The notes under the pieces are model-generated. The model saw only the letters and a program-made list of their open reading frames with translations. It did no database searches and was not told the DNA's origin. The position numbers were made by a program, and so were the translations under genes. From Mustelus asterias (lineage: Eukaryota): DNA of 64,000 nucleotides. How positions within the stretch are numbered: position 1 is the stretch's first letter; each line of letters opens with the position of its first letter. The stretch lies in contig NC_135812.1 in NCBI RefSeq assembly GCF_964213995.1, positions 62,496,001 to 62,560,000 of the forward strand. The letters run 5' to 3'. Of this stretch, positions 16,821 through 52,461 are shown piece after piece.

Positions 16821-17533
16821 ATTTAACTTAACAGTTGAGGTGAACCTTCATATAACGTGAAGATAAATCAGACAGCCGGACCACAGAACAGCAAAGGGTC
16901 ATAAAATATTTAATATAAATCGACTGAACAAGCTGGCAAAGTAGAATGTATTAGGGTAGTCTAAAACGCAGTTGAACAGAAAGCTGGAGGATCTAAGAGT
17001 ACTTAAAGAAATGTGCTCAATGACCTTTTGTCATCCTGACCTTTTTCTTGTGTTTTTTTAATTAGTCACATCAATGTCATCAATGTGTGCATCTCCACTG
17101 ATAGCCCTGCTTGCAATGTGACGGGCTTCTTTCTCCCATTACAGCAGTATACCAAATGGAGGAAACATTAATTCACTTCAAATTACACAACCAGTTGGGC
17201 AACCTACTCCTACGTGACAGTCTCCCTGATAATCCTGTTTCTCTCACCAACATATTTCTTTTTGTTGCCAACAGCCCTTAGGAATGTGATCTGGATGTTT
17301 AATTGGTGCTCCCAATGCTGTGGAACATGAGCCCTGCTTGGTAACATTAAACCCCATGCTCGCAACTCGAAAACAAGTCAATTTGTTCAAAGGTAAACGA
17401 TCACATCAAATAAAAGCTCACCAGCCAAAAAAATCTAGTCAGATATGGTAAGCAATTTGGTTAAATCCTTTAATATTAATAATCAGCCGAAAAGAAGCAG
17501 ACCCGAGTTAGTTCCTATACCTGTATTAGTCAT

Positions 17534-17693
17534 AGTAAGAAATCTCACAACACCAGGTTAAAGTCCAACAGGTTTCACCTGATGAAGAAGCAGCGCCTCG
17601 AAAGCTCGTGATTCCAAATTAACCTGTTTTAACCTGGTGTTGTGAGGTTTCTTATTGTGCTCACCCCAGTCCAATGCCGACATCTCCACATCA
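17534..17693 (+). mobile_element. Short Penelope-like element end with inverted 5' arm and 12 bp TSD
   Basis: TSD TGTATTAGTCAT at 17522-17533 and 17694-17705. Arm 17534-17574 is the reverse complement of the downstream AACCTG..CTTA segment. Confidence 0.85.
17576..17610 (+). ncRNA. Minimal hammerhead ribozyme motif (PLE-associated, degenerate stem II)
   Basis: CAC-CTGATGA-AGAAGCAGCGCCTC-GAAA-GC-TC-GTG. Confidence 0.65.
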
Positions 17694-17882
17694 TGTATTA
17701 GTCATCCCACCCCAGCAACACATTGGGAATATCCTTTATTAAAAACCCAAAAGGGATAGACAAGGCAATCATTGCCTTACTACAGCATTAGCTAACCAAT
17801 AAGTGCCATATAGTTAATCTCCATTACTTTTCAAATGTACCAGGGTTGCTTTTAATTCAACACCTCAATTTTAGAAATGAGG

Positions 17883-19173: not shown

Positions 19174-19632
19174 AGTCACGGGCATTCGGCCTCTGATATT
19201 CGGGTAAGCATTCTCCAAGGCAGCCTTCACGACACACGACGGCGCAGAGTAGAAACTGATAGCCAAGTTCCGCACACACGAGGACGGCCTCAACTGGGAT
19301 ATTGGGTTCATGTCACACTATTTGTAACCCCCACAGCCTGCCTGGAACTGCAGAGTTTCACTGGCTGTCTTGTCTGGAGACAATACACATCTTTTTAGCC
19401 TGTCTTGATGCTCTCTCCACTCACGTTGTTTGTATCTTAAAGACTTGATTAGTTGTAAGTATTCGCATTCCAACCATTATTCATGTAAATTGAGTCTGTG
19501 TCTTTATATGCCCTGTTTGTGAACAGAATTCCCACTCACCTGAAGAAGGGGCTTGGAGCTCCGAAAGCTTGTGTGGCTTTTGCTACCAAATAAACCTGTT
19601 GGACTTTAACCTGGTGTTGTTAAACTTCTTAC
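19174..19632 (+). mobile_element. Penelope-like element 3' end (GIY-YIG C-terminus, 3'UTR, hammerhead), lacking the terminal tail
   Basis: Encodes GHSASDIRVSILQG and KLIAKFRTHEDGLNWDIGFMSHYL*. Nearly identical to 45049-45499. Confidence 0.9.
19532..19576 (+). ncRNA. Minimal hammerhead ribozyme motif, intact core
   Basis: CCACTCAC-CTGAAGA-A-GGGGCT-TGG-AGCTCC-GAAA-GC-TT-GTGTGG. Confidence 0.75.
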
Positions 19633-22164: not shown

Positions 22165-22395
22165 CAGACGAGGTAAGGATGGCAGATTTCCTTCCGCAAA
22201 GGCCATCAGTGAGCCAGATTTTTTTAAAAATGGCAAGCCAATGGTCTTAATGAGACTAGCTTTTTATTCTTGATTTATTGAATGAATTTAATTTAAATTC
22301 CCCAGCTGCTGTAGTGAGATTTAAACCCCATTTGGATCATTTGTCTTGACCTCTGGATTACTAGTCCAGTAACATAACCACTATGCTACTGCATC
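22165..22395 (-). mobile_element. tRNA-derived SINE fragment (same family as 13125)
   Basis: GGTAAGGATGGCAGATTTCCTTCC..CTCTGGATTACTAGTCCAGTAACATAACCAC. Confidence 0.6.
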
Positions 22396-23024
22396 CATTT
22401 GCAGCTTGATCAACAGTAAGATTGAATATCAGAGAAGAGTGGTGGAGGCGGATGCAGCAATGGGAGAAGCACAAGATTGTTCCGGACGGATGCATAAGGA
22501 TACATCCACCTCTGTCAAACAGCATAATGAGTAGCAGTCAACTCAAGAAATGCCCAAGAGATCATAGAAGTAACTCCATTAGGATTATGTCAGCAACCCT
22601 ATGCTTTCAGTGACCACTTCAGCTCAACAGTGATTTTCCAGCGTTGTTCCCATTGAGCCAGGAACCCCATCCGGAAGAGTAGGATTACCAAATTCCTACT
22701 GACATTTTTTTGAACATATTCTAATTCCTGTTTCAGTAATATTTCAAAGCTAACAGATAACAAATCAATGACAAAAGATATGTCACGGGAGGAAAATGAG
22801 GGTTGTAAGATTTATTCTCCCACGCCCTCCAGAGAAATGTGTGCAACAGTGATACATGTATCCCACTTTACATTCAAATTTAGATCCATGGGGTGAAAGA
22901 ACAGTGCATGGTCCCAAAATGACACTAAATTTTGCTAAATGAATAATTAATCCCTTCTAACTTGAGTGTTTTGTTCTGTACACTAGCCATTTTTAATGCA
23001 GATGGATGCTCACAAACAACATTC

Positions 23025-24742
23025 AGACCTGGTGCAAAAATATTTTATTGCTAACATATGCAAAGTTAGGTGGTGTGGTATTTACTGTGTATTTACAATC
23101 ACAGACAGCAGTTTTTATTACTGGGAAGGGGAGCAAATTCAGCACATTTAAATAAATACAGGGGCCTGCCAGTGGCAGAAGCAACAAAGCTACCAATATC
23201 CCCTTCGCACTCTCTCTCACACACAGCAAGATGATACCCTTTCTGCACATACAGGGGGAAAAAAAAAGTACCAATGTCTTTAGATCCTAGAGTTTATTGT
23301 TTTTTATTTTCTGAGAAACAGTATCCCTTTGGTGGGCTAGCGAGACTGAAATATGAAATTATCAATCAAAACGACACAAACACACTCCTTCACATCACTC
23401 CGGCTTGTCGTTTTCAAGGTAGTGTAAGCACATTTACTCAAACAACATGCCATTAGTACCATGTAAATCAGTTACAGTTATTTGCATTTTATCTGCCGTG
23501 GATTCTTCTTTGAAGTGCTGGCAGCTGTCAAAAAGGCTGAACTTGAAGAGGTCCATTTTTTTTTGTTCATGTTTTCCCTACAATATTAAACTGTAACTGC
23601 GCAAATGGTCAAATTACAACCTGCCCACTGTCATCCGGTGGTCGCTCAGTTGTTTTCCAATGCCATTACTTCACTTGAACTTTACAAAAAGTCACTTGAT
23701 TAATACACAAAATGCAATATAGGGTCTTGGTGAAATTATTCTGCACAGGAACGACCAACAGTGCCAGAGTAACAAGGAATAGCAAGTGCTCACCAAAAGA
23801 TAGATTAGTTAGGCTTTTGGTTCAAAATTAGAATATAGGTTAGTGTCAATGAAAGATTAACGGTACGAGTTGCTTGTTTATACTGGTCATATTCTGGCAG
23901 TTCCTTTAAAATTCTCAGTCCACAGAATCACTTTAGTACAGATATATGTTCCTCACTGGCAGCTGTAGAAACGGCATGTATAACAGTATCAAAATGAATA
24001 AAGCTTCAAAACCACTGCCAACCTTATCTAAAATTTGTTTTAAAAGTTCCAAAGTTTAGTTACAGCCCTAGTTAATGGGCTTACAAAAAAAAACGCAAAA
24101 CCGAATCATGGAAGGTTGTGAGAATTTTAATAAGATTTGTTTTGTGTGGGAAGGGATGGGGAGATGGGGGGGCGGAGAGAGAGAGTGTATTTTGCAGACT
24201 GGTAAAATGGGACACTGTCTCTTACTTGTACCTTCTGGTCCAATATTCAACATCCAGATCAAGCTTCAACTTTCAGTCCAATAAACAAAATTGAAAATAC
24301 ACAAGCATCCCCCTCTCTTGTGGTTATATACAAGTAGTGTCTTTCATTTTTTTCCTAAAAAGGATTCCCCATTTGTTTACACAGTAGCTTATACAGCAGT
24401 GTATATAAATCAGCTTTACAGACTTTGTGAGGGACAGCAAGAACCCCAAACATCAAAACAAAGAAGCGAATCCCTATATAGTATTTACAGTCAGAGATTG
24501 CAATCAGACTAATCGCAGCATCTGCAGTGCATGGAGCTCAAAGTAAATGCTAGAACTTTACAATAATAATCTAGGGGAAATTAGGTGCGTGTGGGATGTG
24601 TGAGTGTATGTGTATGTGTGTTTTTAAATACAGCTTGTTTTTCACAGCTGCAGCAACCCCAAAGCTCACATCAAGAGGTCATCTTTGAGCTGTGATTTCC
24701 TGCAGGGGCACGATGCTCGTCTCATACATGCAAAAGGAGCTC
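23025..24742 (-). other. Putative 3'UTR of the MPRIP-like gene
   Basis: Follows the stop at 24743, is free of recognisable repeats, and ends at a polyA signal with a downstream GT-rich element. Confidence 0.65.
23044..23049 (-). terminator. Polyadenylation signal AATAAA
   Basis: Minus-strand AATAAA followed ~25-40 nt later by GAATGTTGTTTGTG. A second AATAAA lies at ~23114-23119. Confidence 0.6.
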
Positions 24743-24814
24743 TTAAAATTCTTTTGTCTCCTTATTTTCAAATAGATGAAACCTCTGTTGAACAGTAAGT
24801 CCTTCTTTGAGACT
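24743..24814 (-). CDS. MPRIP: MPRIP-family protein, terminal coding exon (SLKEGLTVQQRFHLFENKETKEF*)
   Basis: Acceptor ..ctttcacag|AGT, 72 nt ending in TAA. Resembles the human MPRIP C-terminus SLKEGLTVQERLKLFES. Orthologue vs paralogue is unresolved. Confidence 0.9.
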   Translation of the reverse strand, partial: SLKEGLTVQQRFHLFENKETKEF

Positions 24815-25038
24815 CTGTGAAAGGAAGGCAGGAAAAATGACCATCAGTGCAGCACGCAATCAGATCAAGGCATAAAACTGGTAACTTTCTTACCAGTATT
24901 CAATTACACTTGCCTAGTAACAGGATTCGAGGTAGACAAAAATCAAAAATTTAAAGCTTAGTCAATAATTTTCTATAAAATGCTAAAGATTCTTTATAGC
25001 TGTACTTGTTCTTGCCAGTAATCACAGTTAACTAACTA

Positions 25039-25330
25039 GCAGTGGTTAGCACTGCTGCCTCACAGCGCCAGGAACCCGGTTCGATTCCCGGCTTGGGCCA
25101 CTGTCTGTACGGAGTCCGCATGGTCGCCCAGTGTCTGCGTGGGTTTCTTCCGGGTGCTCCGGTTTCCTCCCACTGTCCGAAAGACGTGCTGGTTAGACGC
25201 ATTGGCCATGCTAAATTCTCCCTCAATGTACCCAAACAGGTGCCAGAGTGTGGCAACTAGGGGATTTACACAGTAACTTCATTGCAGTGTTAATGAAACC
25301 CTACTTATGACACTAATAAATAAACTTTAA
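25039..25330 (+). mobile_element. V-SINE variant with alternative tail
   Basis: GCAGTGGTTAGCACTGCTGCCTCACAGCGCCAGG..GGTTCGATTCCCGG head. Tail as at 2355. Confidence 0.85.
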
Positions 25331-25899
25331 AATTAACCAATTCTCTTAACTCCCATTGTTTCTAATTATAGTTTGGAAGCCTGTTCTGACCAATTCAAAG
25401 ATGTGAAATATTTGCATCAATTGTTTCAAAAGAATTCGGTGATAGCTGACTGTACACTACATGAAATAATGTTTGCAGTAACATGTAATGTTAGCAAAAA
25501 TATATGAAGTTCCAGAAGTTAGTTCACCCGAATTGACAAGATGACTAACAATGGGTAACACACAATAGTTGTATTTCACATGTAACAAATATCTATTTGA
25601 CACACTGTAACCATGAATGCTGTAGAAAAGTAGTTTATTAGTGTACATTTTCAGAGAAATTGTTGCATACCATTTAATTCACCTTATACAAACAATGCAA
25701 AAAGATTATTTTGCACATTAAATGATAAACTGAACAATGAACTGTCAGCCATAATATCAGACATGCAGGACAAAGACAACAAAAGCTGTAATTAAAATAG
25801 GCACCACATGACTGCAAAACAAACAACAGGGTTTTAGTTGGTAATGTCCCATTTTGCAGCTAAACTCAAGATCCTGTTACTAAATTACCAGACTGCTTA

Positions 25900-26770
25900 T
25901 CTGATATGCAGTATTGGATGATTAGAAATGTTCTCCAATTAAACAATGATTTAAACGTTCCAAATATTTTTAAGGCCGGCTCCAAACTCCACTCCCTAAC
26001 TCCCGGCTCAGTCTTGTCCCTGGCAAAAGTCCGAATTAAGCAAGTTCATTGCAGCTTTGGTGTCACATTCGACAGAGGTGAGCTTCCGATCTTATTCACG
26101 CCATCATTAACATCTCCCATGTTTCACCTCTGTCATATTGCTTGACTTTACCCCATCTCAGCTAATCTGCTGAAACCCTCATTCCTCTACTTTCATTAGC
26201 AGTCCAAAGATGTGCAGGTTAGGTTGAATGGCCATGCTAAATTGATCCTAGTGTCAGGGGGTTAGCAGCTTAAGTATGTGGGGTTATGGGAATAGGACCT
26301 GGGTGAGATTGTATGATTATTGTCAGGTTCAAGTTTATTAACACACTCTCGGCTGGCTTCCCACATTCTACGCTCCCTCACCCCAAAACTCACATAAACT
26401 TGGTAATCCAAAGCTGTACTATCCATGTCTTAATGCTGAGCAAGTTTGCTCCCCATCACACCTGTGCTCACTGACCTACATGGGCTCCTGGTCAAAGCAA
26501 TGTCTTGATTTTGAAATTTTCATCTCTTTTTTCAAATTCCTCCATGGCCTTGCCCCTCCCTACCACTGTAATCTCCTCCAGCTCCACAGCGCTCAGATAT
26601 CTGAGTTCATCTAATTCTGGTCTTGAGTTTCCTCTATTTTAAATGCTTCATCATTGGTGACCACGTCTTCAGCTGCCCAGGTCCCAGACCCTGGAAAACT
26701 CTCCCTAAATCTCCCCATCACTCTAACTTGCTCTCCTTCTTTAAAATACTCCTCAAAACCTACCTCAATG
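25900..26770 (+). mobile_element. Degenerate L2 3' region with an HE1 fragment at ~26200-26312
   Basis: CCCCATCACACCTGTGCTCACTGACCTACATGGGCTCCTGG..CCATGGCCTTGCCCCTCCCTA, an L2-like C-terminal signature (HITPVLxxLHWL). Confidence 0.65.
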
Positions 26771-26900
26771 ACAAAGATTCTGGTCTGGCGAGCATAGATG
26801 ATGATGGACAGAAAGGACATGCCCCTCATCACAACAGTAACTGCTGTACTCAGGTATGTTTATGAGTGGGTGGGTGTTGGCTGAGATGGTTAGTCAGGTT

Positions 26901-26925
26901 GGGGGGGGGGGGGGGGGGGGGGGGG
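26901..26925 (+). repeat. Poly(G)25 within a G-rich tract (~26865-27045)
   Basis: Direct observation. Confidence 0.9.
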
Positions 26926-27229
26926 AGGTTTAGGGTTGAGGTCATTTGGCTGGGGTTGAGGGGCTTGTGGGAGGGATAGATTGGATCAGGTCAAGAGTGC
27001 AGCCAGATTGGCTTGATGGGCTATTGGGGGAGGGGGGGTAGGTTGTGTTGCTGAGTTCAGTTATGCTGGATAACTGTGGAATAATTTCCAGGATAAATAT
27101 CCGGGTAAGTCCAGTGTGTCTGGCCCAAATCTCAGTGTCGGAGTCTTCCGTGGATCATTCCGGGCAGCACAACTCAGCCTATCAGACGCTTAAACTTCCT
27201 GGGCAATTACAGTGCAGGTCTGTGCATCC

Positions 27230-27574
27230 ATAGAATCCCTACAGTACAGAAAGAGGCCATCATACCCTTCGAGTCTGCACCAACTCGCCGAAAGAGCTTC
27301 CCACCTAGGCCCTCCCCTCCGCCTTATTCCCGTAAACCCGCACATTTTTCACGGCTAATCCACCTAACCTACACATCTTTGGGCACTAAGGGATAAATTT
27401 AGCATGGCCAGTTCACCTAACCTGCACATCTTTGGACTGTCAGAAGAAACTGGAGCACCCGAAGGAAATTCACGCAGACATGGGGAGAATGTGCAAACTC
27501 CACACAGTCACTCCAGGCTAGAACTGAACCGGAGTCCCTGGTGCTGTAAGATAGCAGTGCTAACCACTGTGCCA
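27230..27574 (-). mobile_element. HE1/V-SINE
   Basis: Full head-to-tail reverse-complement match to the other copies. Confidence 0.85.
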
Positions 27575-28929
27575 TCGAAAAGTTCAGGCCAATATCTTTA
27601 TGTGACTTGGTATTATGCTTGATTTTGTAATGTGAAACGCCTTGGGACATTCCATTATGTTAAGGATGGCAAATAAGTACAAGCTCTTTTCCATTTTTTT
27701 CTATTCTGCAAGACACATTATCCAAACCAATGTGATCCACTTTCAAATCACAGGGTTGGGCACAAGCTAGCTGTACTTTCAGATCTGTAATATCATACCT
27801 GAGGATAAAGTTAAATGTTAATCAAATTAAGAAAAAGTCTATGAAGATGATGTGCACTTCAGGTGAGAGAGACCGGCAAATAAATTAAAATATTCCCACT
27901 TTTTGCTAACAATGACAACAGCAGAACACCACTGTCAAAGATCAATAGGGGGATTTGATGCAAGATGAAGCTCATTCATTAATGACCTAATATTTGCATG
28001 CAATGAACTCGTCCTCAGATTCAGAATGCTCAAACAGTACAGGAGGATGAAATCTCATCAGAGCTAAATTCAAACCACCAAAATTTTCAGAATAATATTT
28101 TACCACTTTCATTGCACCACTCAATCTTCTGGCTGATTTGATTAGGTTGTTGATGCATCATGTCACAAATAATGTCTACTAAAACATACGTATGGCAAAC
28201 ACCTATTTGAATTTCAGAATACATACATGGCTTGGGAAAGTCAATTATTACAAGACACTAATCCTCAACCATGTTAACTGTACTTTGTAGCACCCTTGGA
28301 TATGTAGCTATAGCATTCTAATAGCAAGATATCACCAGCACACCTCAGCGTGAAAGGTTCTCTTTCTCACTGAATTTAAAAAAGAACCAAAGGTAGGCCT
28401 AGCTACTGTGCGGATTATAACAATGGTCAGATTGTTACCTTGTTGGAAGCGAGATTATTTTGCTCTCAAGAAACATAGCTGACAACGCTTACCATCTATT
28501 ACACTATCCCACTTTCAGGAAGTTTAGACTACTGATGCATAAAATAGCCAGTCAATAGTCTAACCAAGTTGCAGTTTTGTGGCTCATGCCAATAAATATT
28601 GAGACAACAGGACTGGAAATCCTCCATTAATAAACTAGCTGATGCTCAGCAAAGTGGAACATTCTGCACCAGTCATGGACACAAAGTGCAAGAGGTTTAA
28701 TTTTGCAGCAGTCTTAATAAAGCATGCACAAATCAAACAATAACATTTTAATATTCATACACCCACAGTTTGCAATAATTGTGACAAAGCATTGCATTGA
28801 TTTGCCAAACCAATGGAAATGGACAACATACAAAGTAAACATAAAAGAAACACAGAGGCCAGGCGAATGTACTAAACCTCTAATGCTGTTGTTAGGTCAC
28901 CAGCCAAAGATGTGTGTTGGTCTAACTTA

Positions 28930-29130
28930 GGAACAGGCATAGGCCATTCAGCCGTACAAGCCTGTTGTGCCGTTCAATTAGATCATGGCTGATCTGCATC
29001 CCAACTCTATCCACCCACCTTGGTTCCACATTCTTTAAAACCATGGCTCCAAAAATCTATCACTCTTAGATTTAAAATGAATTGAGCTAGCATCTAATAC
29101 TTGTAGTGGGAGAGAGTTTCGCACTTGCTT
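28930..29130 (-). mobile_element. CR1 3' tail fragment
   Basis: GGAACAGGCATAGGCCATTCAGCC..GATCATGGCTGATCTG. Confidence 0.7.
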
Positions 29131-29975
29131 CCACTGTTTGAAATAGCTTGCAATCAAGGACAAAAATTAAGGAACTCCGACTTAAAGATGCCCACAATTA
29201 TTTCCCACCAGTTGAACCATTGTACAAGCTACCAAACTCAATTTTAGATCATGCTAATTATTAAGGCAGATGTCAGTACACTGCAACATTTTTGCGTCGT
29301 GACACTGTGAAAGGATTGATAAGGTTGTTGTGCAGAAATCAAACAATTTTAAAATAAATTTAGAATCTCTGGCTCATCTGATTCTTTAAAAATATGCCTG
29401 CAGACACAGCAATGAGAGATTTAATTCCACACAGGCCAACGCAGAGTCCAGGAAACAGACCCAGACAAATCCCAGTGCATGACCACACACAAAAAAATTC
29501 CAACTCCCACAGTGACATGCCTTCACTCAGTGACAATAACCAATGGTGGTTTACCTAAAGGGAAGGTGTCAATCATCAAGTAGCTCTAGCTGTCCCATGC
29601 CAGCGCTTTACTCACAGACTAAAGGATAACAAAGGGGAGCAAAATGAAATAAGGTTAGAAAGCAAAGCATCACTATTAACCTATGAACCACAGACTAATA
29701 ATTTTGGCTGGATTCTGCCCAGTATTATCTCAAGGGGTAATCTATGAAAAGTAACAAGATACAGAGTAATCTATGGTGGTTCTTCCATGCAAGCTGATCT
29801 GAGTGACTTTGTTCTTTTCTTTCACCAACAAAAATGGCTGAAAGTTTTTTTTTCATATAGGTTTAAAAAGAATTTTCCGTTGCTCTCTCCCCTTTTCAGT
29901 GATCTTACACTCTACCTCTAAGGATACAGCCAGTGCAGACACACCGTTAACAGTACGGTGCACATGGCATCTAAG

Positions 29976-30107
29976 GTGGAGATGCTGGCATTGGACTGGG
30001 GTGGGCACAGTAAGAAGTCTCACAACACCAGGTTAAAGTCCAACAGGTTTATTTGGAATCACGAGCTTTTGGAGCGCTGCTCCTTCATTGACCATCATTC
30101 CTAAGCT
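29976..30107 (-). mobile_element. Short Penelope-like element end with a degenerate hammerhead truncated in CUGAUGA
   Basis: Minus strand ATGAAGGAGCAGCGCTCCAAAAGCTCGTG..CATCTCCAC. CATCTAAG is repeated at 29968-29975 and 30108-30115 (TSD). Confidence 0.8.
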
Positions 30108-31616
30108 CATCTAAGTTAGGAATGATAGTCTTTGCACTGATCTCAGAATGGGGAATCTATCATTCCCATCTTAGCTTTGATGAATCTTTCGAAGGTGTAT
30201 TATACCTACAAAAAAATTAATGTTAAAAAATTCCTCATTTTCTTCATGAAAAATGATCCCCCAGCAACCCCAAACAAGAGACAGGCAAGCTGCTTCCCTG
30301 ATTCTCCATATGCAGCTCTGTAGCTTACTACTGTTGATTGGTTTAGCTCTCAAGTAACTCTTGTCTGTCTCCCTTTATTTCTCTAATGTTGTTGACTTTC
30401 CAACCAGGGCACTACTTGGTGAATCATACTTATTACTGGCCATTTCAGATAGGGCCTTTTTCAAAAAGGTGCACTTCACTTAACTTTAAAAAAAGAATTA
30501 AGTTATACAAATATCAGAGGGTAACCAGCCCGTATCCCCAGAAAACAATCATCCCTAGGAAGGAACCACCACCTTCAGTGAGGAGGAGGGGAGGAAAACA
30601 TTGCAAAAAAGGATTTCCATTTTTATATAGTAAAACCTCACTTGCAAATAGGGCGTTGGTTGCAATAAAAGAAGAAAGCGAGAACAGTTTTTCACCACAA
30701 CAGGTTTATCAGGCTAATTTTCTCCATATTTGGACTAATACTACAAATTATTTAAAACTAAACACCAAGAATTTAACTAGACAAAAATTACAAGTGGATT
30801 ATTTTAAATGTTGTTATATAAACTCAACATTTCACCTCAAAGATCAGCTTTGCATGGGAACGGTTCAGCACGATAAGTGTATATTTAAAATTAAAACAAA
30901 TAAATGGTACACAACCTGACTTGGTGGCTTACCTGACAATGACGCATCTAAAAATGGGAAGACACAACTCAAAAACCCACAAGACAAATCAGTGATGCAA
31001 AGCTGCCTCATGTACATTTGTTTTCAACTATGTACCAAGTCAAGTCATGCATTTGTTTTATACCACAGGTATGATTTTTTGAAACTGAAAATATTCTTTT
31101 GTACCATCAGAAAGGCTCGAAGCACCAAATCGGAGTCCACACCTGAGGTATAAAACTCAATTATCAGAACACATCAACTGTTTCAGGAACTACACATAGC
31201 AGCTAATTTCCTCCCAATTTACTTGTTCAGCATGTTTATTTCCATCTTGGATTAAATCAAAAATATTATTTTAGATTAGGTAGTAGACAAAGAAGAGTTT
31301 AATTTTCCAGGTCCAGTAAGTTAAAATTAAATTCTGTAAGCATAATGGGTTATTTATTAATGTGTAGAGGTTTCCTGTTTCCTGAAGAGCTTACCTGTAT
31401 CATGAAGATTAAGTGCCTTAGTGTAATCCTCAGTCCATACTAGCTTCCAGCAACTACTACACTACCAGCCTCTGAACTAGTTTATCAAGTAGAATAATAA
31501 AAGGATGCTTGACAGAACACATATGATAATATTAGCAAATATACTGAAGTACTCAACACTACCGCTTAACCTGAAGCAAAGAACAGATACCAGAAATGTT
31601 AAATAATAGAGCTTAC

Positions 31617-31699
31617 CTTTGACCTAAGTGTGCGATCTGCTCGTTTTGCTGCAGCTGCCATCTTTAGGATATCTGGATTGCTTTTTGATTTCATTATAT
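31617..31699 (-). CDS. MPRIP: MPRIP-family exon (DIMKSKSNPDILKMAAAAKRADRTLRSK)
   Basis: ttttttctcag|AT ... AAG|gtaagc, 83 nt, phase 1 to 0. DIMKSKSNPD is the MPRIP motif. Confidence 0.92.
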
Positions 31700-32709
31700 C
31701 TGAGAAAAAATGTTTCATTCTTTTAAAATTTGGCCTCCTGCTTGCTCCAAGACTCAATTTCAAGGCTGTAAGTTCAAAGCCACTTTTATGTATCAAGTTG
31801 TCCCCACTTCCACAAAACGTGCTTACAGCCATTTTTGCTTGAACAGTCATGGTGACGGCAGTAATTTCTCAATGGTTCCGAGCACAGGTATAACACCCCT
31901 ACAACATTTTAGGGATTTTAGGAAACAGGCTTTCTTTTGAATTGTGTAACTCTATGGTGGAGCTATTGTAGCAGGAATATTTTAAGTTGAGTGCTTCCAT
32001 GTCCAGAGTTTCAGGAAGTTAAAATAGTATTTTCTAGCTAGCTGTCATAACAAATTTGTAACCAAACTCCCCATACCAGATGCATTGTCTCCATTTTGCT
32101 CCCTTTTTCCTGAAGACACCGGATATATTGGAATACGGTTTCATGGGGATGAAAGCCCAGCCATTCATCAGGTGCAAGTTTGTCAACAAGTTATTTGATT
32201 AGAAGGTACATCCTGCCCTTGCCAGTAGAAGTCACTGTACAGAAGAGAATAGGATACAGGAAGGCATTTTCACTTTCCTCTCTCTGACTGCTGAGAACAG
32301 CAACAGAGCAGCCAACCTCACCCAACTGAGATTTTCTGAATCAGTATGAATGGCACCAAGTCCGGGGCCCTGCTGGCTTGCACTCTTAGAACAAAAAGGA
32401 AGACTTGAAATAAGTTGATCTCTGAGAAAATTCAATTAAAATAAAATTAAGCTCAATTGCACACTCTAATGTCACATAGTGAGTCCAGATGAAACATTTC
32501 AGCCCATAAGATTTCACAATTTTTCAAACTTGTCAGCGGTCTCTTAAATAAATTCATTGTACTGGCCCCAAGCACCTTTCTTGAAGGTTATTATCTAGAT
32601 ACCCCATTTCAGAAAGAAAAACATAAAGAGCTTGTTCTTCGCCAGAACAAAACATATTCTATTTAAATTAGTACAATTATATTTGCTATTATTTTTAATT
32701 CCGATGTAC

Positions 32710-32872
32710 CGTATCTGCTGTGCTCTGTTTCATCCATGGGCTGTTCCCCCAGTGCTTCTTGTGCCAGCTGAAGCTGCTCTTTTAGTCTGTTTACGTCACG
32801 TTCTGACTTAGCCTTTACGATACTTAGCTCTGTGTAGATGTCCTTATACTTGTCTGTGGCGTACTTTTTATC
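32710..32872 (-). CDS. MPRIP: MPRIP-family exon (DKKYATDKYKDIYTELSIVKAKSERDVNRLKEQLQLAQEALGEQPMDETEHSRY)
   Basis: ttcttcag|GAT ... TACG|gtacat, 163 nt, phase 0 to 1. Confidence 0.92.
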
Positions 32873-34844
32873 CTGAAGAAACAGATGTACTTGTGCAGAA
32901 TTTACAAAGAAATTACATTGTGTTGTCTCAACCCAGCGACGGTAGCTCTAAATCTCAGGCTGCTCATCACTCAGTTCTGCCTTTGGCACACTGGCGATTT
33001 CAATTTGCCAATCACGACAGCTTGCATCTTATACTCTCAAGCACAACACCAGTCCAAACATCCAGCATCACCTTTGACTTGACAAAGGAATATTGCTAAT
33101 CATTCTCCATTGTCAAATCCTCCATCTACTCCAAGATCATTCTTGAAAGTGAGGACAAACCCATACTCCTCAAACATTGAACACATCCTCTGACCTAACA
33201 CACTGTACTTTCCATTCACACTTTCAAGTCCAGCACGCAGCAACATGTGAACTTAATTTAATGGAGCATTTAATTTAGCTGGTCTTATGGTTTTGAAATA
33301 TTTCTGGAGAAATTTTAATCTGTATAGTCAACACTATTTGCATCATCGATAAAGGAAAATGGTGTTTTTTAAACTGATCTCAAACTTAGGATTTGAAACG
33401 GGTGCAAATAAGACACCTGCCTTTCACCACCTGACACTAGTTGCAATGATGGAACCAAATGTATTTTTAAATTATTAAAACCAATACCAATCAGATAATT
33501 GCTTGGAGGTTTCCAAGTATAAATGTAATGTTGGAATGGACACAATAGGCCTGCTATGCTGTAATCATACAAGTTGTATATATTTGAATTAATGCTGTCA
33601 CTTTAATATTTGTAGATGCTGTTTTGGGCAGCGACATCAGATGCACCAAAGAATAAAAATTCTGCCAGGTCTTCAACCACTTTCCATTGCAAATCCAACT
33701 ATATGTAGAAGTGATTTCATACCCAGCTCTATGTAGTTTGCGTTGTACACTACTAATTGTGACCACACCTATTTCTAGGTTTAAAAACAGATACCATTAT
33801 AATGAGACAAGTAATACTACAAAGTTGACATACAGAGTTCTAGCTAAAACAAAGAGCAACTGCAGAATAAGGGACAGAGACCTGGGGCAGATAACTAGCT
33901 AGCAATGGTGTCGGTTTGCAGGGACATGAGGGAGAAATGAAAATTAACAGAGTCAGGATTCCCATGTAAACCAAGCTGCTGACTTTACTAGTGCCAAAGC
34001 CGCTGTCACTCTCTATCCTGGCACAAAATCCGTAATTTAATTTTTAAAATGCAGGAGAAATACTGCAGCAATTTCTGTAGCCTGTTATAGCGATGTAAAA
34101 CTCTTAAGCTGTTTAAACTCTTACTCATTAGCTGGAATTCCTTGGTTTGATCTTTTTGTGCTGTTGTACATATTGTATGGAAAGGAGTGCCAAGCAGTGC
34201 AAATTCTGTCTAACTTAATTAGAGCCAGAAGGCACAATGTTCTTCCCACTTCATCTTGTTTTATGATCAATAATAATGCACATTCTGGTTATTGAATACA
34301 GTATGGAAAAATTAGTACTATATTCTTTACATCATACAAGTTATCATCCAGCTCTCCAAACTTGGAAAAGACAAATCTTGGGTTTTGGAGGGAGTTCTCA
34401 GAATAGCAACTAGACACATCAGTGTAATAAAAACACTTCATAGCTGGTAATAAATCTGTGCCCTTTTGTTACTCCTTCAAAGATTAATATCTAATGCAAA
34501 TGCACAAAAATGCACAAATCGTTTAGTGAAGAATAGCAATAGCTTTCCTCATGGCTTATTCGATAAAGGTATTGCCTGGTTTGATAATGATCTGTTCAAA
34601 CCAGAAGATTGCAGATTTTGATCCTGATCTGAGCTATGGTGGCCAATCTTGGTCACGGTAGCAGCTAGATACTACAATTAGTGTCAGTTCTCCTCGGCTG
34701 GGGAGCGGGTGAGTATGGGGACGGGCAGCAGTTGGTATAAAATAAATCAGGGTTCTAATTTCTGACTGCTATCCATTAAGTTCTGCTAGAAATGCTGGTG
34801 CATGGATATCAGGTGAATTCAGCAATGTCTCCCATGGATGTATG

Positions 34845-34990
34845 AGCACTGTGGGTGTTCCGTCAACACTTGGACTACAGTGGTTCAAGAAGGCAGCTCA
34901 CCGCCACCTTCTCAAGGGCAAGTAGGGATGGGCAATAAATGGTGGTCTAGCTAGTGATAGCAGCATCCTACGAATGAATAAATAATAAAA
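34845..34990 (+). mobile_element. LINE 3' tail fragment
   Basis: GGTTCAAGAAGGCAGCTCACCGCCACCTTCTCAAGGGCAA..GGGCAATAAATG, then an A-rich end. Confidence 0.7.
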
Positions 34991-35191
34991 AACATAATCG
35001 GCTTCCGTTCAGCTTGAAAGCTCTCACCCAAAGATACAGCGAGAAGGTTGTTGGCAGCTAAATGGATTTGTTGCCCTCAGAAGAGAAGGAAAATAAAAGG
35101 AAGGCAGAATAACTTAAAAACTAGCTCTTAGTTGAAACAGAAAATGGTAAATCTACCATCAGGCATTCAGTATAGTGAGAAGAGTACTTAC

Positions 35192-39179: not shown

Positions 39180-40860
39180 TTCTCTGAAAGAATAACATGT
39201 GCTGTGGATAAAGGGGAGCCTGTAGACATGCTGTACTCATTTCCAGAAAGCATTCAGTAAGGTATCACATCAAAGGTTATTGTGAAAAATAAAAGCTCAT
39301 GGTGTGTGTGCGTGCGCACGTGCATGTATGTATGTACGTGGGGGTGGGGGAAGGGGTAACATATTAGCCTGGATGGTAGCAAGGAAACAGGTAATGCATA
39401 AATTGCTTTTTTCTGATTGGCAGGACGTGACGACTGGAGTCCTGCAGGGGTTTGTGTTGGACCTCAACTTTTTACAATTTACGTCAATGACTTATATGAA
39501 ATATTATCTTCATAGTCCATAAGTGTACAGGGCAGCACGGTAGCACAGTGGTTAGCACTGCTGCTTCACAGCTCCAGGGTCCCGAGTTCGATTCCCGGCT
39601 CGGGTCACTGTCTGTGTGGAGTTTGCACATTCTCCTCGTGTCTGCGTGGGTTTCCTCCGGGTGCTCCGGTTTCCTCCCACAGTCCAAAGATGTGCGGGTT
39701 AGGTTGATTGGCAAGGTTAAAAAAAAAATGCCCCTTAGAGTCCAGGGATGTGTAGGTTAGAGGGATTAGCGGGTAAAATATGTGGGGGTAGGGCCTGGGT
39801 GGGATTGTGGTCGGTGCAGACTCGATGGGCCGAATGGCCTCCTTCTGCACTGTAGGGTTTCTATGATTCTATGATTTCTATGAAGGGAGTGAAAGCATGG
39901 TAGCTAAATTTGCAGAATACACATGGATAGGAAGATTGTGAAGATGACATAAGGAGTTTGCAGATGGCTACAGATACGTTAAGTGAGTGGGCAAAAACAT
40001 GGTAGAGTATAATGAGGGAAAATATGAAGTTGTTCACTTTGGTAGGAAGAGTAAAAAAAGCAGAGTATTACTTAAACGGAGAATGACTGCAAAATTTGGA
40101 GATGCAGAGGGATCAAAGTGTTCAAGTGCATGAGTCACAAAAGGTTAGTATGCAAGTACAGCAAGTAATTAAGGAGGCTAATGAAATGCTATCCTTCATT
40201 ATGAAAAGATTTGAATATAAAATTAAATGTTATGCCTCAGTTATAAAAGGCATTGGTGAGCCCACATCTTTAATATCGTGTGCAATTTTGATCTCCTTAT
40301 TTAAGGAAGGATATAAATCGGTTGGAGATGGTTCAGAAGTTTACTAGGTTGATACCTGGAATGAGTGGGTTGTCTTGAGTATAGGTTAGACAAATGCAGC
40401 TTGTTCCCACTGGAGTTTAGAAGAGCGATGGGTGACTTGATTGAAGTGTTTTAGATTTTGACAAGGTGGATGTGGAAAGGATGCTCCCCTTGCAGGGGAG
40501 TCCAGAACTAGGGGGTACCCACCCTTGACCTTGATACCTTCCCCAATACCTCACCACCCTCAACACTGACTTCTGGACTACAACTCCTTTTCCCACTCCC
40601 CTGACAAATTAGACAGGAAGGTGGGTTGAAGTGTGTCTACTTCAAAATTAAAGGTAATCCTTTAAGGACAGATGAGAAATCTTTTCTCAGTGGATTGTGT
40701 GAATTTGGAACTCTTGCCTCAGAAGGTGGTGGAGGCAGGGTGATTGAATATTTTTAAGGCAGTGGTAGATAGATTTTTGTTAGGCAAGCAGGTCAAAAGG
40801 TTATCGGGGTTAGACAGAAATGTGGAATTTGAAACAGATCAGCCATGATCTTAATGAATG
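39180..40860 (+). mobile_element. Old CR1 RT/3' region, interrupted by a SINE and a younger CR1; tail resumes at 43913-43980
   Basis: GATAAAGGGGAGCCTGTAGAC (DKGEPVD) and QVQQVIKEANEML. AGCCATGATCTTAATGAATG continues as AATGGTGAAGCAGACTCGAGGGGCCAAATGGCCTAC at 43913. Confidence 0.85.
39530..39880 (+). mobile_element. Full-length, well-preserved HE1/V-SINE
   Basis: GGGCAGCACGGTAGCACAGTGGTTAGCAC (A box), GAGTTCGATTCC (B box), tail (TTCTATGA)n. Confidence 0.93.
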
Positions 40861-43800
40861 AGAGGGGCACCAATATTCTGGGAGGGAACCAGAGGGGCAC
40901 GAATATCCTGGGAGGGAAATTTGATACGGCTCTTCAGGGGGGTTTAAACTAATTTGTCAGGGGAGTGGGAAAAGGAGTTGTAGTCCAGAAGTCAGTGTTG
41001 AGGGTGGTGAGGTATTGGGGAAGGTATCAAGGTCAAGGGTGGGTACCAGTAGACAGGAAGGTGGGTTGAAGTGTGTCTACTTCAATGCAAGGAGCATCCG
41101 GAACAAAGTAGATGAACTTGGGGCGTGGATTGGTACTTGGGACTACGATGTTGTGGCCATTACAGAGACGTGGGTAGAACAAGGACAGGAATGGTTGTTG
41201 GACGTTCCGGGGTATAGATGTTTCAGTAAGTGTAGGGAAGCTGGTAAAAGAGGTGGAGGAGTGGCATTGTTAATCAAGGATAGTCTAACGGCTGCGGAAA
41301 GGCACTTCGAGGGGGATCTGCACACTGAGGTAATATGGGCTGAAGTTAGAAATAGGAAAGGAGCGGTCACATTGTTAGGAGTTTACTATAGGCCCCCAAA
41401 TAGTAATAGAGATGTGGAGGAAGAAATTGCTAAGAAGATTATGGATATGTGTGGGGGTCTCAGGGTAGTTGTCATGGGGGACTTGAACTTTCCAAATATT
41501 GATTGGAACCTTTGTAGGTCAAATAGTTCGGATGGGGCAGTTTTTGTGCAGTGTGTGCAGGAGGGTTTCCTGACACAATATGTGGATAGGCCGACAAGAG
41601 GTGAGGCCACATTGGATTTGGTACTGGGAAATGAACCGGGGCAAGTGTTAGATTTGGTTGTGGGAGAGCACTTTGGAGATAGTGACCACAATTCGGTGTC
41701 TTTTGTTATTGCAATGGAGAGGGATAGGGCCGTACGGCAGGGCAAGGTTTACAATTGGGGGAGAGGTAATTATGATGCGATTAAGCAAGAATTAGGGGGC
41801 ATAAGATGGGAACAGAAACTGTCAGGGAAAGGCACTAATGAAAAGTGGAACTTTTTCAAGGAACAAATACTGGGTGTCCTTGATAGGTATGTCCCTGTCA
41901 GGCAGGGAGGAAATGGCCGAGTGAGGGAACCATGGTTCACCAAAGAGGTGGAATGTCTTGTGAAAAAGGAAAAGGGAAGCTTATGTAGGGATGAGGAAAC
42001 AAGGTTCAGATGGCTCGATTGAGGGTTACAAGTTAGCAAGGAATGAGCTGAAAAAGGGGCTTAGGAGAGCTAGGAGGGGACCTGAGAAGTCCTTGGCGGG
42101 TCGGATCAAGGAAAACCCCAAGGCTTTTTAATCTTGTGTGAGGAATAAAAGAATGACCAGGGTGAGGTTAGGGCCGGTCAAGGACAGTAGTGGGAACTTG
42201 TGTATGGAGTCAGTAGAGATAGGCGAGGTGATGAATGAATACTTTTCTTCAGTGTTCACCAAGGAGAGGGGCCATGTTTTTGAGGAAGAGAAGGTGTTAC
42301 AGGCTAAGAGGCTGGAGGAAATAGTTGTTCGGAGGGAGGATGTCCTGGCAGTTTTGAATAAACTGAAGGTCGATAAGTCCCCTGGGCCTGATGAAATATA
42401 TCCTAGGATTCTTTGGGAGGCAAGGGATGAGATTGCAGAGCCTTTGGCTTTGATCTTTGGGTCCTCACTGTCCACGGGGATGGTGCCAGAGGACTGGAGA
42501 GTGGCGAATGTTGTTCCTCTATTTAAGAAAGGGAACAGAAATGACCCTGGTAATTATAGGCCGGTTAGTCTTACTTCGGTGGTTGGTAAATTGATGGAAA
42601 AGGTCCTTAGGGATGGGATTTACGACCATTTAGAAAGATGCGGATTAATCCGGGATAGTCAGCACGGATTCGTGAAGAGCAAGTCGTGCTTCACAAATTT
42701 GATAGAATTTTTTGAGGAGGTAACTAAGTGTGTTGATGAAGGTAGGGCAGTTGATGTCATATACATGGATTTTAGTAAGGTGTTTGATAAGGTCCCCCAT
42801 GGTCGGCTTATGATGAAAGTAAGGAGGTGTGGGATAGAGGGAAAGTTGGCAGATTGGATAGGTAACTGGCTATCTGATCGAAGACAGAGGGTGGTGTTGG
42901 ATGGAAAATTTTCGGACTGGAGGCAGGTTGCTAGCAGAGTGCCACAGGGATCAGTGCTTGGTCCTCTGCTCTTTGTGATTTTTATTAATGACTTAGAGGA
43001 GGGGGCTGAAGGGTGGATCAGTAAATTTGCTGATGACACCAAGATTGGTGGAGTAGAGGATGAGGTGGAGGGCTGTTGTAGGCTGCAAAGAGACATAGAT
43101 AGGATGCAAAGCTGGGCTGAAAAATGGCAAATGGAGTTTAACCCTGATAAATGTGAGGTGATTCATTTTGGTAGGACTAATTTAAATGTGGATTACAGGG
43201 TCAAAGGTAGGGATCTGAAGACTGTAGAGGAACAGAGAGATCTTGGGGTCCATATCCACAGATCTCTAAAGGTTGCCACTCAGCTGTGAAGAAGGCCTAT
43301 AGTGTGTTAGCTTTTATTAACAGGGGGTTGGAGTTTAAGAGCCGTGGGATTATGCTGCAACTGTACAGGACCTTGGTGAGACCACATTTGGAATATTGTG
43401 TGCAGTTCTGGTCACCTCATTGTAAGAAGGATGTGGAAGCACTGGAAAGAGTGCAAAGGAGATTTACCAGGATGCTGCCTGGTTTGGAGGGTAGGTCTTA
43501 TGAGGAAAGGTTGAGGGAACTAGGGCTGTTCTCTCTGGAGCGGAGGAGGCTGAGGGGAGACTTAATAGAGGTTTATAAAATGATGAAGGGGATAGATAGA
43601 GTGAACGTTCAAAGACTATTTCCTCGGGTGGATGGAGCTATTGCAGTTATAGCTATAGAGCATGAACCCTATAACTACAACGATAGGGTTCATGGTGGGA
43701 GATATAGGAAGGATATCAGAGGTAGGTTCTTTACGCAGAAAGTGGTTGGGGTGTGGAATGGACTGCCTGCAGTGATAGTGGAGTCAGACACTTTAGGAAC

Positions 43801-43912: not shown

Positions 43913-44581
43913 AATGGTGAAGCAGACTCGAGGGGCCAAATGGCCTACTTCGGCTCCTATTTCATATCTTCGTATGTATGTTCAAATGTAATGTCAATGA
44001 ATGGCTGCTGTTACACTTGATCGTTTCTTGCAAGATGGACAAAGATGGTATTTGTCCCCTTGGTGCTGCTTTTTCTTTTCTATGTGGGCAATCTGAAAGC
44101 CCTCCGAGGCAGAGGAGGGCCATTCCTGTTGCAAGATGATGTTTGAGCGGTTTGCTCATCTCTGCTTTATGTTGTTGATGGTTGATAGACTGCTGCCAGG
44201 TTCAGCATTCCTTGTGCTTGTGGCATGTTGACAGGAAGTCGCAGCGTGTGCACAGTGGTTGACGCGTCTACCAGCTGTACCATCATCGTAGTTATAGGTA
44301 ACGGCTTCTCAGACTGATTGTTCTCCAGTGTCACTTCCACCAGAGGTGTCATGGTAATCTTGTGGGGAGTAGGTCGGTCTGACCATTGGGGATATCTTTT
44401 GTGTTAATCTAACCATTGGGGAATGATAATAAATGTGATCCATAAAGAGAGATCAAAGGCAAAAATCAGGGTCTAAGTACTCTTCAGTGTTTGAGCACTG
44501 TTTGTTCTGGCTGACTTTCGACACAGTGAGAGGTTTAACAACACCAGGTTAAAGTCCAACAGGTTTATTTGGTAGCAAAAG

Positions 44582-44626
44582 CCACACAAGCTTTCGGAGC
44601 TCTAAGCCCCTTCTTCAGGTGAGTGG
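44582..44626 (-). ncRNA. Minimal hammerhead ribozyme motif, intact core, sense to the host pre-mRNA
   Basis: Minus strand CCACTCAC-CTGAAGA-A-GGGGCT-TAG-AGCTCC-GAAA-GC-TT-GTGTGG. Confidence 0.75.
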
Positions 44627-45396
44627 GAATTCTGTTCACAAACAGGGCATATAAAGACACAGACTCAATTTACATGAATAATGGTTGGAATGCGAATACT
44701 TACAGCTGATCAAGTCTTTAAGATACAAACAACGTGAGTAGACAGAGCATCAAGACAGGCTAAAAAGATGTGTATTGTCTCCAGACAAGACAGCCAGTGA
44801 AACTCTGCAGGTCCCCAGACAGGCTGTGGGGGTTACAAATAGTGTGACATGAACCCAATATCCCGGTTGAGGCCGTCCTCGTGTGTGCGGAACTTGGCTA
44901 TCAGTTTCTGCTCAGCGACTCTGCGCCGTCGTGTGTTGTGAAGGCCGCCTTGGAGAACGCTTACCCGAATATCAGAAGCCGAATGCCCGTGACCACTGAA
45001 GTGCTCCCCAACAGGAAGAGAACAGTCTTGCCTGGTGATTGTCGAGCAGCATTCGGCCTCTGATATTTGGGTAAGCGTTCTCCAAGGCGTCCTTCACGGC
45101 ACAGAGTCGCTGAGCAGAAACTGATTGCCAAGTTCCGCACACACGAGGACAGCCTCAACCAGGATATTGGGTTCATGTCACACTATTTGTAACCCCCACA
45201 GCCTGCCTGGACCTGCAGAGTTTCACTGGCTGTCTTGTCTGGAGACAATACACATCTTTTTAGCCTGTCTTGATGCTCTCTCCACTCACGTTGTTTGTAT
45301 CTTAAAGACTTGATTAGTTGTAAGTATTCGCATTCCAACCATTATTCATGTAAATTGAGTCTGTGTCTTTACATGCCCTGTTTGTGAACAGAATTC

Positions 45397-45441
45397 CCAC
45401 TCACCTGAAAGAGGGGCTTGGAGCTCCGAAAGCTTGTGTGG
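45397..45441 (+). ncRNA. Hammerhead motif with mutated core (CTGAAAG), probably inactive
   Basis: CCACTCAC-CTGAAAG-AGGGGCTTGGAGCTCC-GAAA-GCTT-GTGTGG. Confidence 0.55.
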
Positions 45442-46700
45442 CTTTTGCTACCAAATAAACCTGTTGGACTTTAACCTGGTGTTGTTAAACTTCTTACTGT
45501 GTTTACCCCAGTCCAACGCCGGCATCTCCACATCATCACTTTCGACAGCCATCTGAAGGAGATCCAGCGCTCGACAGGCATTCCTGCTTAGGAGAGAGAA
45601 AGACTGGTTACAGATGACGTACATCAGCTCTCTTGCTGTCATACCTCAGTGGTTTGAGGGTCATGTCAATGACTGGGAGTCAGACTCCCCCTGCCCTGTA
45701 AAGTGGAGTGTCTGATGTTTGAATCCAGGGGCCTTGGAACAGCGGCTCCTTCTCTGACAGGAATGTAACACTGGCACCTGAATCTAATTTAAAATTTGTT
45801 AGAAGACCATTTACTAGAGTGTGTCAGCTCTCCAAAAGGAAGTACTGCACTCTTTGATCTCACCCAAGAAGCATGACTGTCTCTCTTCTGGGTTTTCAGT
45901 CTCATCCTCGTGGATGACATTTGGGGGATCTATATGGTGCTGGGGTTTGACTTGCAGTTTACCAAAGTGTTTCTGTTTGTTGCAATGGGAGCATTGGGCT
46001 GTCCTCACAGGACATTGCTTTTCTGTGAGAGTGTTTTGTATCATGATACTGGCAAGGTTGCTCTGCTGGTTAGTTCAGGAATTGTTTCGCCCTGACTTGA
46101 ATTGTCCCTGCATTTCTGTGACATGATAAGATGGACTGAGGTTTGGTTTCTGCCCCATGTTGTATTTTCTCCCCTTAGGGTGGTCCTGTGTTGTTTACGT
46201 AGCTCAGACAGTCTAACTAGCCCTTACGACTTGCCTTGGCCAAGGTGATCTTTAGCTTGTAGGAGGTCAGAGAGGGAATCGTTTGCAATACCCATCAAGA
46301 TTCTGTCGAGGATAAGCTTAGACTTTAAAATCTCCGTATTCACACTCCTCTGCCACCCTGAGATCATATGATAGAATCAACAAGCTCTCCAGGCAGTTGG
46401 ACTCTTACTAAATTTAGCTTTTTCCAATAATTTGTTTAAACATTGATGTTGAAGGACTTCAAAACTTTCTCAGATTTGGCAGATTACTCATTAATATCTT
46501 GTCGTGTGATGATTTTGCCTGTAAATGGCCCAAATGAATAACTAGTGTGTTTACTTGCTGTTTCAGATTTTTTATTTAGACTGAAGCAATGCTGTGTTCT
46601 TCCAAAGACTCGAACTCTGTGACTGGTTCAGGCCTTGGGTAAGTTCCAACAGAGCCGAAAGTGTGGAATTGTGATCCATGTTGAAAATTTTAATATTGTG

Positions 46701-47689
46701 TGTGACGCTACTTTGCCTTTAAGAAAGGTATTTTAAGCATGTTCTCAGCAGTTATACAGTAAGAAGTTTAACAACACCAGGTTAAAGTCCAACAGGTTTA
46801 TTTGGTAGCAAAAGCCACACTTTTGCTACCAAATAAACCTGTTGGACTTTAACCTGGTGTTGTTAAACTTCTTACTGTGTTTACCCCAGTCCAAAGCCGG
46901 CATCTCCACATCATGCTCAGCAGTTATAAGCAGCCCTGTTTTTCTTTATTGGGGTACTGAGTTGTCTGAGCCAGTGACCTCTTATTGTTGAAAAGCCATA
47001 TAATGGGCCTTTTGTTTATTTTTAATCTGGGCCTAATGCAATGTCCTGGAGTTCTATGACCCTTTTGAATTGTCTGGTTTGCAACTGATTGACAGGTCAT
47101 GGTCAGGTGGCTCCTACCTAAGGAAATCCAAGAGTTACTTTCAGAAGCTGTTAGGACTTCAGACTTAAAGTAGTGTGTTTGTCTCTCCCCCGGTATTGGA
47201 AATTTAGCTCTTGGTGACTCCCTAGCTAGTAGAGGAAAGGAGTGCCTCTGTCTCTCGAAGAGTGCTGAAATTCCAGGGTCAGAAGGCCTCAGTATTTCAA
47301 CTGAACATCCAAAGTGGGAAATCACAGCTGGGGTTGCAAAGCTGCCAAATCCAGCATCACATAAGCATACTGATTTTCTGCGCTAAACCTAGAATGGCGG
47401 TGTGTTGTAAGGGTTTGTTTGGTTGGAACAGTACATTTAGCTTTAAGGTATATACAATATCATGATTGTTTCTTTTCTTGTTTGTAATCGGTATAAGTTA
47501 TTGATGATTTTTCTTATATGTTAACTGTACTCTTAAATAAACCTTGTTTGATGAAAGCTCCCTAGTGGGTCACTTGAGTCATACCTGGAGTGAAACATCT
47601 TATGCTTACCTGTGCCAAATTTCAAAGTGCAAAACTTATGGTCTAGGCTGACTTCATAAAAAACCTTGGAATTTCTCACCTATATAACA
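46701..47689 (+). mobile_element. Solo LTR with 4 bp TSD
   Basis: TGTGAC...ATAACA termini. TGTG at 46697-46700 and 47690-47693. AATAAA at ~47536. Confidence 0.7.
46757..46915 (+). mobile_element. Miniature foldback Penelope-like insertion (59 bp perfect hairpin plus tail) with 13 bp TSD
   Basis: TSD CTCAGCAGTTATA at 46744-46756 and 46916-46928. Stem 46756-46814 pairs with 46820-46878. Confidence 0.92.
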
Positions 47690-52342: not shown

Positions 52343-52461
52343 GGTGTGGAGATGCCAGCGTTGGACTGGGGTGGGCACAGTAAAAAGTATCACAACACCA
52401 GGTTAAAGTCCAACAGATGTATTTGGTAGCACCAGCTTTCAGAGCGCTGCCCCTTCATCAG
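52343..52461 (-). mobile_element. Short Penelope-like element end beginning at the hammerhead CUGAUGA
   Basis: Minus strand CTGATGA-AGGGGCAGCGCTCT-GAAA-GC-TG-GTG..CATCTCCACA. AGAGAACAA occurs on both sides (52334-52342, 52460-52468). Confidence 0.82.

Follow-up and report, generated by a model that had tools for sequence, protein, structure and literature searches.

The DNA analysed here, called the window, is a 64-kb stretch of the Mustelus asterias genome, and at 46744-46928 it carries a 172-nt insert with a 13-bp target duplication, CTCAGCAGTTATA, on both sides (13 of 13 positions identical). The arms of the insert (46756-46814 and 46820-46878) lie 5 nt apart and are complementary at 59 of 59 positions, and re-measurement returned exactly the perfect 59-bp arms, 5-nt loop, 37-nt tail and 13-bp duplication that a preliminary description had claimed. 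The insert folds at -72.3 kcal/mol (z -16.9), a value equalled by 0 of 200 shuffles, and the hairpin at 46756-46878 is far beyond chance. Aligned in element sense to a sister copy (45436-45536), the inverted arm (46756..46820) corresponds to +1..+65, directly after GAAAGCTT, and is identical to 45436-45500 at 65 of 65 positions, while the forward arm aligns to +7..+101 and differs at one position. The arm thus begins at the predicted scissile bond, as had been proposed, at +1 or +2: base 46820, a C, fits either arm, so that the breakpoints are +1/+8 or +2/+7, and the 1-nt ambiguity that the same proposal attached to this shared C is real. The 172-nt copy itself has neither a hammerhead nor an open reading frame (ORF), and the cut site is taken from sister copies (Table 1).

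Table 1 Insertions of the repeat in the window and features discussed in the text; element positions are counted from the predicted hammerhead cut, with +1 the first nucleotide after it.
Feature	Position	Strand	Remarks
Target-site duplication, left copy	46744..46756	+	last A common to the inverted arm
Inverted arm, including the 5-nt loop (46815-46819)	46756..46820	-	element +65 down to +1 (+2 if the shared C is the forward arm's)
Forward arm, paired part	46820..46878	+	element +7 (or +8) to +65; AATAAA at +19..+24
37-nt tail, forward arm only	46879..46915	+	about +66..+102
Target-site duplication, right copy	46916..46928	+	13-bp match to the left copy
Sister insertion, same subfamily as the 172-nt insert	44514..45547	.	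inverted arm ~44523-45048; forward arm 45049-45536 with tail; 10-bp duplication
71-aa C-terminal end of a Penelope-like ORF (second half of the GIY-YIG endonuclease)	44836..45048	-	in the sister's inverted arm
Predicted minimal type I hammerhead, core intact	44585..44621	-	in the sister's inverted arm; predicted cut between 44588 and 44587
Copy B	19175-19632	+	with hammerhead, without tail; starts at -396
Predicted minimal type I hammerhead, core intact	19537..19573	+	in copy B; predicted cut between 19570 and 19571
Copy A, other subfamily, arm-arm-tail shape	17522..17705	.	inverted arm ends ~+13; forward arm from -32/-31; 12-bp duplication
Copy C, other subfamily	29976..30088	-	starts at -26, within the hammerhead core
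Copy D	52345..52461	-	starts at -29, first base of the hammerhead core; 9-bp duplication

By its family protein and its architecture the element is an endonuclease-positive Penelope-like retrotransposon, and the 172-nt insert is a short, target-duplicated Penelope-like insertion of ordinary architecture. An inverted, 5'-truncated partner, a tail of 30-40 nt at one end and a target duplication form the typical shape of Penelope-like elements (PLEs) in the accessible parts of PMC8557442, PMC3846280 and PMC2377424; this published shape and the perfect duplication argue against an assembly artefact. The 71-aa frame of the sister copy has 28 relatives among 42 candidate proteins, the named ones from sharks and with identities of up to 93%, and the frame alone gave no Pfam match. 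In a domain scan of eight relatives, P0009 matched RVT_1 (5e-9) and P0005 matched GIY-YIG (2e-5), both above the curated cut-off, P0026 matched both domains below the cut-off, and two of the eight had no match. P0009 maps back onto three arms in the window. The combination of reverse transcriptase (RT) and GIY-YIG endonuclease is found at the level of the family, in the proteins of relatives and not in the 172-nt copy. Read by eye, a C-x4-C-x2-C linker and two cysteines within the GIY-YIG motif occur in P0009, P0001, P0008, P0026 and P0016. A CX2-5CxxC linker between RT and endonuclease, together with two cysteines in the GIY-YIG motif, distinguishes the Neptune/Nematis type in the part of PMC8557442 available to us, and by linker and cysteine motifs alone the family protein appears to bear the mark of this type. 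Separately, the endonuclease tail also occurs within predicted isoforms of shark host genes such as XRCC5, septin 5a and USP8 (P0013, P0014, P0015, P0019, P0021, P0024, P0027, P0028), which are probably exonised repeats or annotation artefacts.

The window holds six insertions with nine arms of the Penelope-like repeat, a count that leaves out two weak profile matches (E 2.7 and 8.8). None of the six is a full-length copy. Three of the six have the full shape of inverted arm, tail and duplication; for copy C, a script found no target duplication. The downstream ends of the arms are uniform, at about +65 in all three inverted arms and at about +97..+102 in five of the six forward arms. The nine breakpoints on the other side lie at +1/+2, +7/+8, ~+13, -26, -29, -32/-31, -387, -396 and ~-460; those of the sister 44514-45547 are about -460 and -387, and both of its arms traverse the hammerhead. 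One arm of nine at the cut has a chance of 0.036 if stops are spread over 495 nt, and of 0.133 if the match is counted among the six arms within 85 nt of the cut. Since six of the nine arms stop within -32..+13, the match at +1/+2 carries a chance of 0.04-0.13, and the caution given at the outset, that one copy could be a coincidence, is borne out: within the window alone the match is not beyond chance.

A stronger pattern than the match at the cut (1/9) is the clustering of starts at the upstream edge of the hammerhead (3/9), at 17576, 30088 and 52461 in copies A, C and D, which are all three of the forward arms outside the subfamily of the 172-nt insert. The stop of the forward arm of the 172-nt copy, +7/+8, coincides with the 3' edge of what may be an extended stem I (+1..+6, read by eye). 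Six of the nine arms carry sequence upstream of the cut, and these would still be compatible with cleavage, because an end-to-end jump or re-ligation would rebuild the hammerhead without a scar.

Several further observations concern copies and repeats elsewhere in the window. The stops of three long arms (19175, 45049 and 45048) fall within about 75 nt of one another in the endonuclease frame (-387 to -460), which may be a second preferred stop. The sister arms (44523-45536) differ by ~4%, including at a site that is split roughly evenly in the family (19555, G/A), which hints at two template RNA molecules. The 5' junction of copy C (about 30089-30125, - strand) carries 18 nt of flank sequence in inverted orientation, with two mismatches. 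A CR1-like LINE (ORFs 40925-43289) has copies of its 5' part 400 nt upstream, as a 99-nt perfect inverted and a 36-nt direct copy (40514-40645 and 40949-41085), and 16341-16621 is an imperfect 281-nt palindrome unrelated to the Penelope-like repeat.

Downstream of the ORF we predict a minimal type I hammerhead of the kind found in PLEs. As described in the accessible part of PMC4209133, this minimal form combines CUGANGA and GAAA boxes with a stem I, a long stem II with an unpaired 5' base, a palindromic stem III and UH before the cut. A descriptor of the core, a stem I of 3 bp, a stem II of 6 bp and a palindromic stem III is satisfied by two of the three arms of the subfamily that span the site (19537 on the + strand and 44621 on the - strand), and in the third the core is broken. 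The core pattern occurs three times in the window against 0.05 expected. Rfam models gave 0 matches at the gathering threshold over the whole 64-kb window. Unconstrained folding did not return the hammerhead fold, which reaches -9.5 kcal/mol with stems I and II imposed, so the structure call rests on the motif and the stems. Position 17 is U in the subfamily of the 172-nt insert, C in copies A and C, G in copy D, and A in a further subfamily present in contigs. Under the NUH rule position 17 may vary among U, C and A. CUU is given as a cleavable triplet in PMC6908138, as far as its accessible text goes. Judged by the core, stems I and II and the palindromic stem III in two of three arms, the putative scissile bond that had been placed after GAAAGCTT is correctly predicted.

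Ends and joints at the cut were sought in contigs from four of 23 listed runs, representing four organisms and 17,774-35,165 contigs per run, aligned on copy B (19341-19640) as the reference, in which +1 is 19571. The 3' end at 19632, a control, is present in all four runs with long clips (445, 258, 202 and 208 contigs). Among the 24 listed of 729 rows from the four runs there are no loose ends at 19570-19572; the ranking of these rows does not follow count only, which leaves room for a modest peak at the cut, and they lean against a dominant one. Rows at 19573, 19574, 19576, 19579, 19581 and 19586 were rejected as breakpoints, as the clipped consensus is the hammerhead of another subfamily; their clips are short (median 15-32, versus 255 at the 3' end), and this artefact had been predicted at 19581 and 19585-6 before alignment. 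The 19573 rows are inseparable from possible cut-site junctions of the GCTA subfamily. Depth per bin was dropped as a measure of breakpoints because the subfamilies have only the downstream part in common. In pattern scans for host DNA, 0 loci were found in metagenome contigs and 0 in viral contigs, and one match in a prokaryote genome was dismissed as a 21-nt chance match in unrelated bacterial sequence.

Among 15 listed of 19 plain joints, one resumes at +2. Among 12 listed of 30 filler-bearing joints, four resume exactly at 19571 (+1), all from run X1. These four leave the element at +37 or +39, pass through 9-10 filler letters, mostly A, and continue at +1, in contigs with a depth of 19-23, similar to that of other single-contig joints there (16-47). 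The oligo(A) begins 13-15 nt past AATAAA, whose position at +19..+24 makes +37/+39 the expected place of a poly(A) site. The base before +1 is A or G in the joints, where the natural base is T, and hence there is no positional ambiguity. The joints suggest that a poly(A) site lies 13-15 nt beyond AATAAA and that a jump departed from the cut end; most simply, a cDNA would have reached its end at +1 and been extended on a poly(A) tail. As the resumption at +1 follows oligo(A) without microhomology, templates that start at +1 probably exist. With 18 listed joints resuming in +1..+42, the probability of the pattern is P = 0.00075 if the four are independent; the nearly equal T+A length (13-14 nt) means that they may descend from one event, and collapsed to one they give P = 0.30. 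A fifth joint of run X1 also leaves at +37, from 19607 to 19588.

For the 172-nt insert, the reading that we favour is an insertion by two joined cDNAs in which the stop at the cut arose by chance or through structure, and we regard this as about evenly balanced between right and wrong. Two reverse-transcription starts that bound the tail, with extension of both target strands, are described in the accessible part of PMC11167929. On this model two cDNAs would have been primed from two nicked target strands, one starting at the end of the tail (about +101) and the other at an internal start at +65, and the tail at 46879-46915 would lie between the two start sites (compare PMC11167929 and PMC2377424). 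Both cDNAs would have stopped early and were likely end-joined head-to-head over one shared base. The most likely reason for a stop at +1/+2 is that reverse transcripts of this family often terminate within or next to the folded hammerhead, and 44514-45547 (-460/-387) and 17522-17705 (+13/-32) show the same shape with breakpoints away from the cut. Against chance or structure stand the position of the breakpoint, which is the nucleotide pair that the cleavage model names beforehand, and the four X1 joints, which resume exactly at +1. The arm's stop at the cut hints at copying from a self-cut RNA; alone, a stop at +1/+2 is no proof of a self-cut template.

In the preliminary description the hairpin was explained by a cDNA that ran off the 5' end of a ribozyme-cleaved RNA and folded back or re-primed. 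Its scissile bond and arm start are right, but the fold-back would need one G-C pair (+1.7 kcal/mol) and cannot give the tail. Taken literally, with one cDNA running off the cut end and self-priming the second arm, fold-back is very unlikely to account for the insert. Palindromic inverted junctions have been read as self-priming in PMC3846280, where the available text places it on an antisense template. Geometrically, the terminal C could close a 5-nt loop by pairing with G46814, and if arms diverged by 4%, as in the sister copy, identity at 59 of 59 positions would have a chance of 0.09. However, the observed register is that single pair, with a pairing probability of 0.035, and a different junction would result from an alternative register at this end, which is lower in energy (-0.4 kcal/mol). 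Fold-back copying past +65 would moreover enter target DNA, so that the 37-nt sense tail is not supplied, and copy A has a forward arm extending ~45 nt beyond its inverted arm on the 5' side, an outcome that folding back the inverted arm cannot produce.

Long inverted repeats tend to lose their centres by deletion. The insert might descend from a longer head-to-head insertion, of the kind at 44514-45547, whose palindrome lost its centre by a later deletion at the DNA level, in which case the breakpoint would be unrelated to RNA. A longer version of the same shape does lie 1.2 kb away, and the junction has one base of microhomology. Yet central deletions would usually widen the spacer, where here there is a near-perfect hairpin with a 5-nt loop, and short inserts are evidently common, as copies A, C and D illustrate; we consider such a deletion highly improbable.

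The remaining alternative keeps the two-primer insertion and adds that the RNA had been cut by its hammerhead and that the top-strand cDNA ran off the resulting 5'-OH end, at +1, before it was joined, so that the copy would record self-cleavage in the germ line. This is a tentative reading that we think is rather doubtful for the hairpin. In its favour, one reading of the inverted arm puts its start exactly at +1, two of three subfamily arms have an intact hammerhead, position 17 as U, C or A across subfamilies fits NUH, and the four X1 joints run from +37/+39 through oligo(A) to +1 (P = 0.00075 if independent). The R2 element offers precedents: the ribozyme cut is mirrored in its junctions (PMC3774820), and its enzyme switches to a new template on coming to the end of one (PMC4117753), both as given in the accessible parts of these papers. 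On the other side, the X1 joints are perhaps one event (collapsed P = 0.30) and come from one run, perhaps the source sample of the window, with the strand of the joint absent from the table of joints; the window copy has its one-base ambiguity at 46820, and copy D has G at position 17. Minimal PLE hammerheads cut poorly in vitro (PMC4209133; for minimal hammerheads also PMC6765202) and one of nine Xenopus dimers cut (bioRxiv 10.64898/2026.07.22.740005), according to the available text of these sources. In a dimer of the subfamily of the 172-nt insert, AAGCUU could pair over six bases, which would tie up A14 and U17. For Poseidon, the accessible part of PMC11167929 reports that cleavage is dispensable in vitro and that no RNA reads end at the cut.

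The wider proposition, that shark PLEs sometimes copy hammerhead-cut germ-line RNA, starting at the tail, running off at +1 and then either jumping to poly(A) (the X1 scars, in tandem) or joining to a second cDNA (the hairpin), is a serious possibility, although we incline slightly against it. If true, the ribozyme would be restored scarlessly whenever the enzyme jumped from one cut end to another, and both the partial tandems and the invisibility of the cut would be explained. The in vivo action of PLE hammerheads and the origin of partial tandems are posed as questions in the accessible parts of PMC4209133, PMC8557442, PMC2377424 and PMC11167929. We found no report of PLE junctions at the hammerhead cut in the mostly open-access literature searched, and Fig. 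S2 of PMC11167929, which sets genomic ends against the hammerhead, bears on novelty. Any shark assembly could be searched for junctions at the cut, which would count as in vivo evidence. The hairpin at 46744-46928 alone does not settle hammerhead action in vivo. Of the two signatures, the joint from oligo(A) to +1 is the sharper: its position is unambiguous and it specifies a mechanism, and in a full assembly such joints make the role of the ribozyme directly countable. If neither signature holds, the locus is an ordinary short retroelement copy.

Compared with canonical PLEs, as given in the accessible parts of the literature, the insert shares the tail-less inverted arm set head-to-head, a 37-nt tail (D. 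virilis has 34-37 nt and PLEs in general 30-40 nt) and the duplication, and the family shares a protein with RT and C-terminal GIY-YIG and a minimal hammerhead downstream of the ORF. It differs in that the 172-nt copy is very short, has no ORF or hammerhead and has a junction loop of 5 nt, and one of its breakpoints lies at the predicted cut, a feature that is not mentioned in the accessible parts of PMC8557442, PMC3846280 and PMC2377424. Poseidon of Anolis carolinensis, studied in vitro (PMC11167929, accessible part), is similar in having two tail-bounding starts downstream of the hammerhead and extension of both target strands, but its cut is dispensable with no RNA ending there, and the C-x4-C-x2-C linker in the shark protein is of the Neptune/Nematis rather than the Poseidon type. 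The HDV-like ribozyme of R2 is alike in junctions that record a ribozyme cut and in run-off, microhomology and template jumps (PMC3774820; PMC4117753); in the accessible text the R2 cut defines every full-length 5' end, whereas in the window one of nine arms is at the cut and six of nine extend upstream. Non-LTR retrozymes (PMC7229834; bioRxiv 10.64898/2026.07.22.740005) are, in the parts available, also non-coding kin of PLE pseudo-LTRs with a type I hammerhead in the family, but theirs are head-to-tail with a hammerhead per unit. We rejected a retrozyme identity for 46744-46928, as its arms are head-to-head and the hammerhead is absent from it. The 5' inversion of LINE-1 by twin priming uses two target-strand primers on the RNA, with the products joined by microhomology, and in both respects resembles the insertion proposed here. 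The LINE-1 pieces cover adjoining parts of the RNA, whereas here both arms cover +7..+65, so that two templates or two passes are needed.
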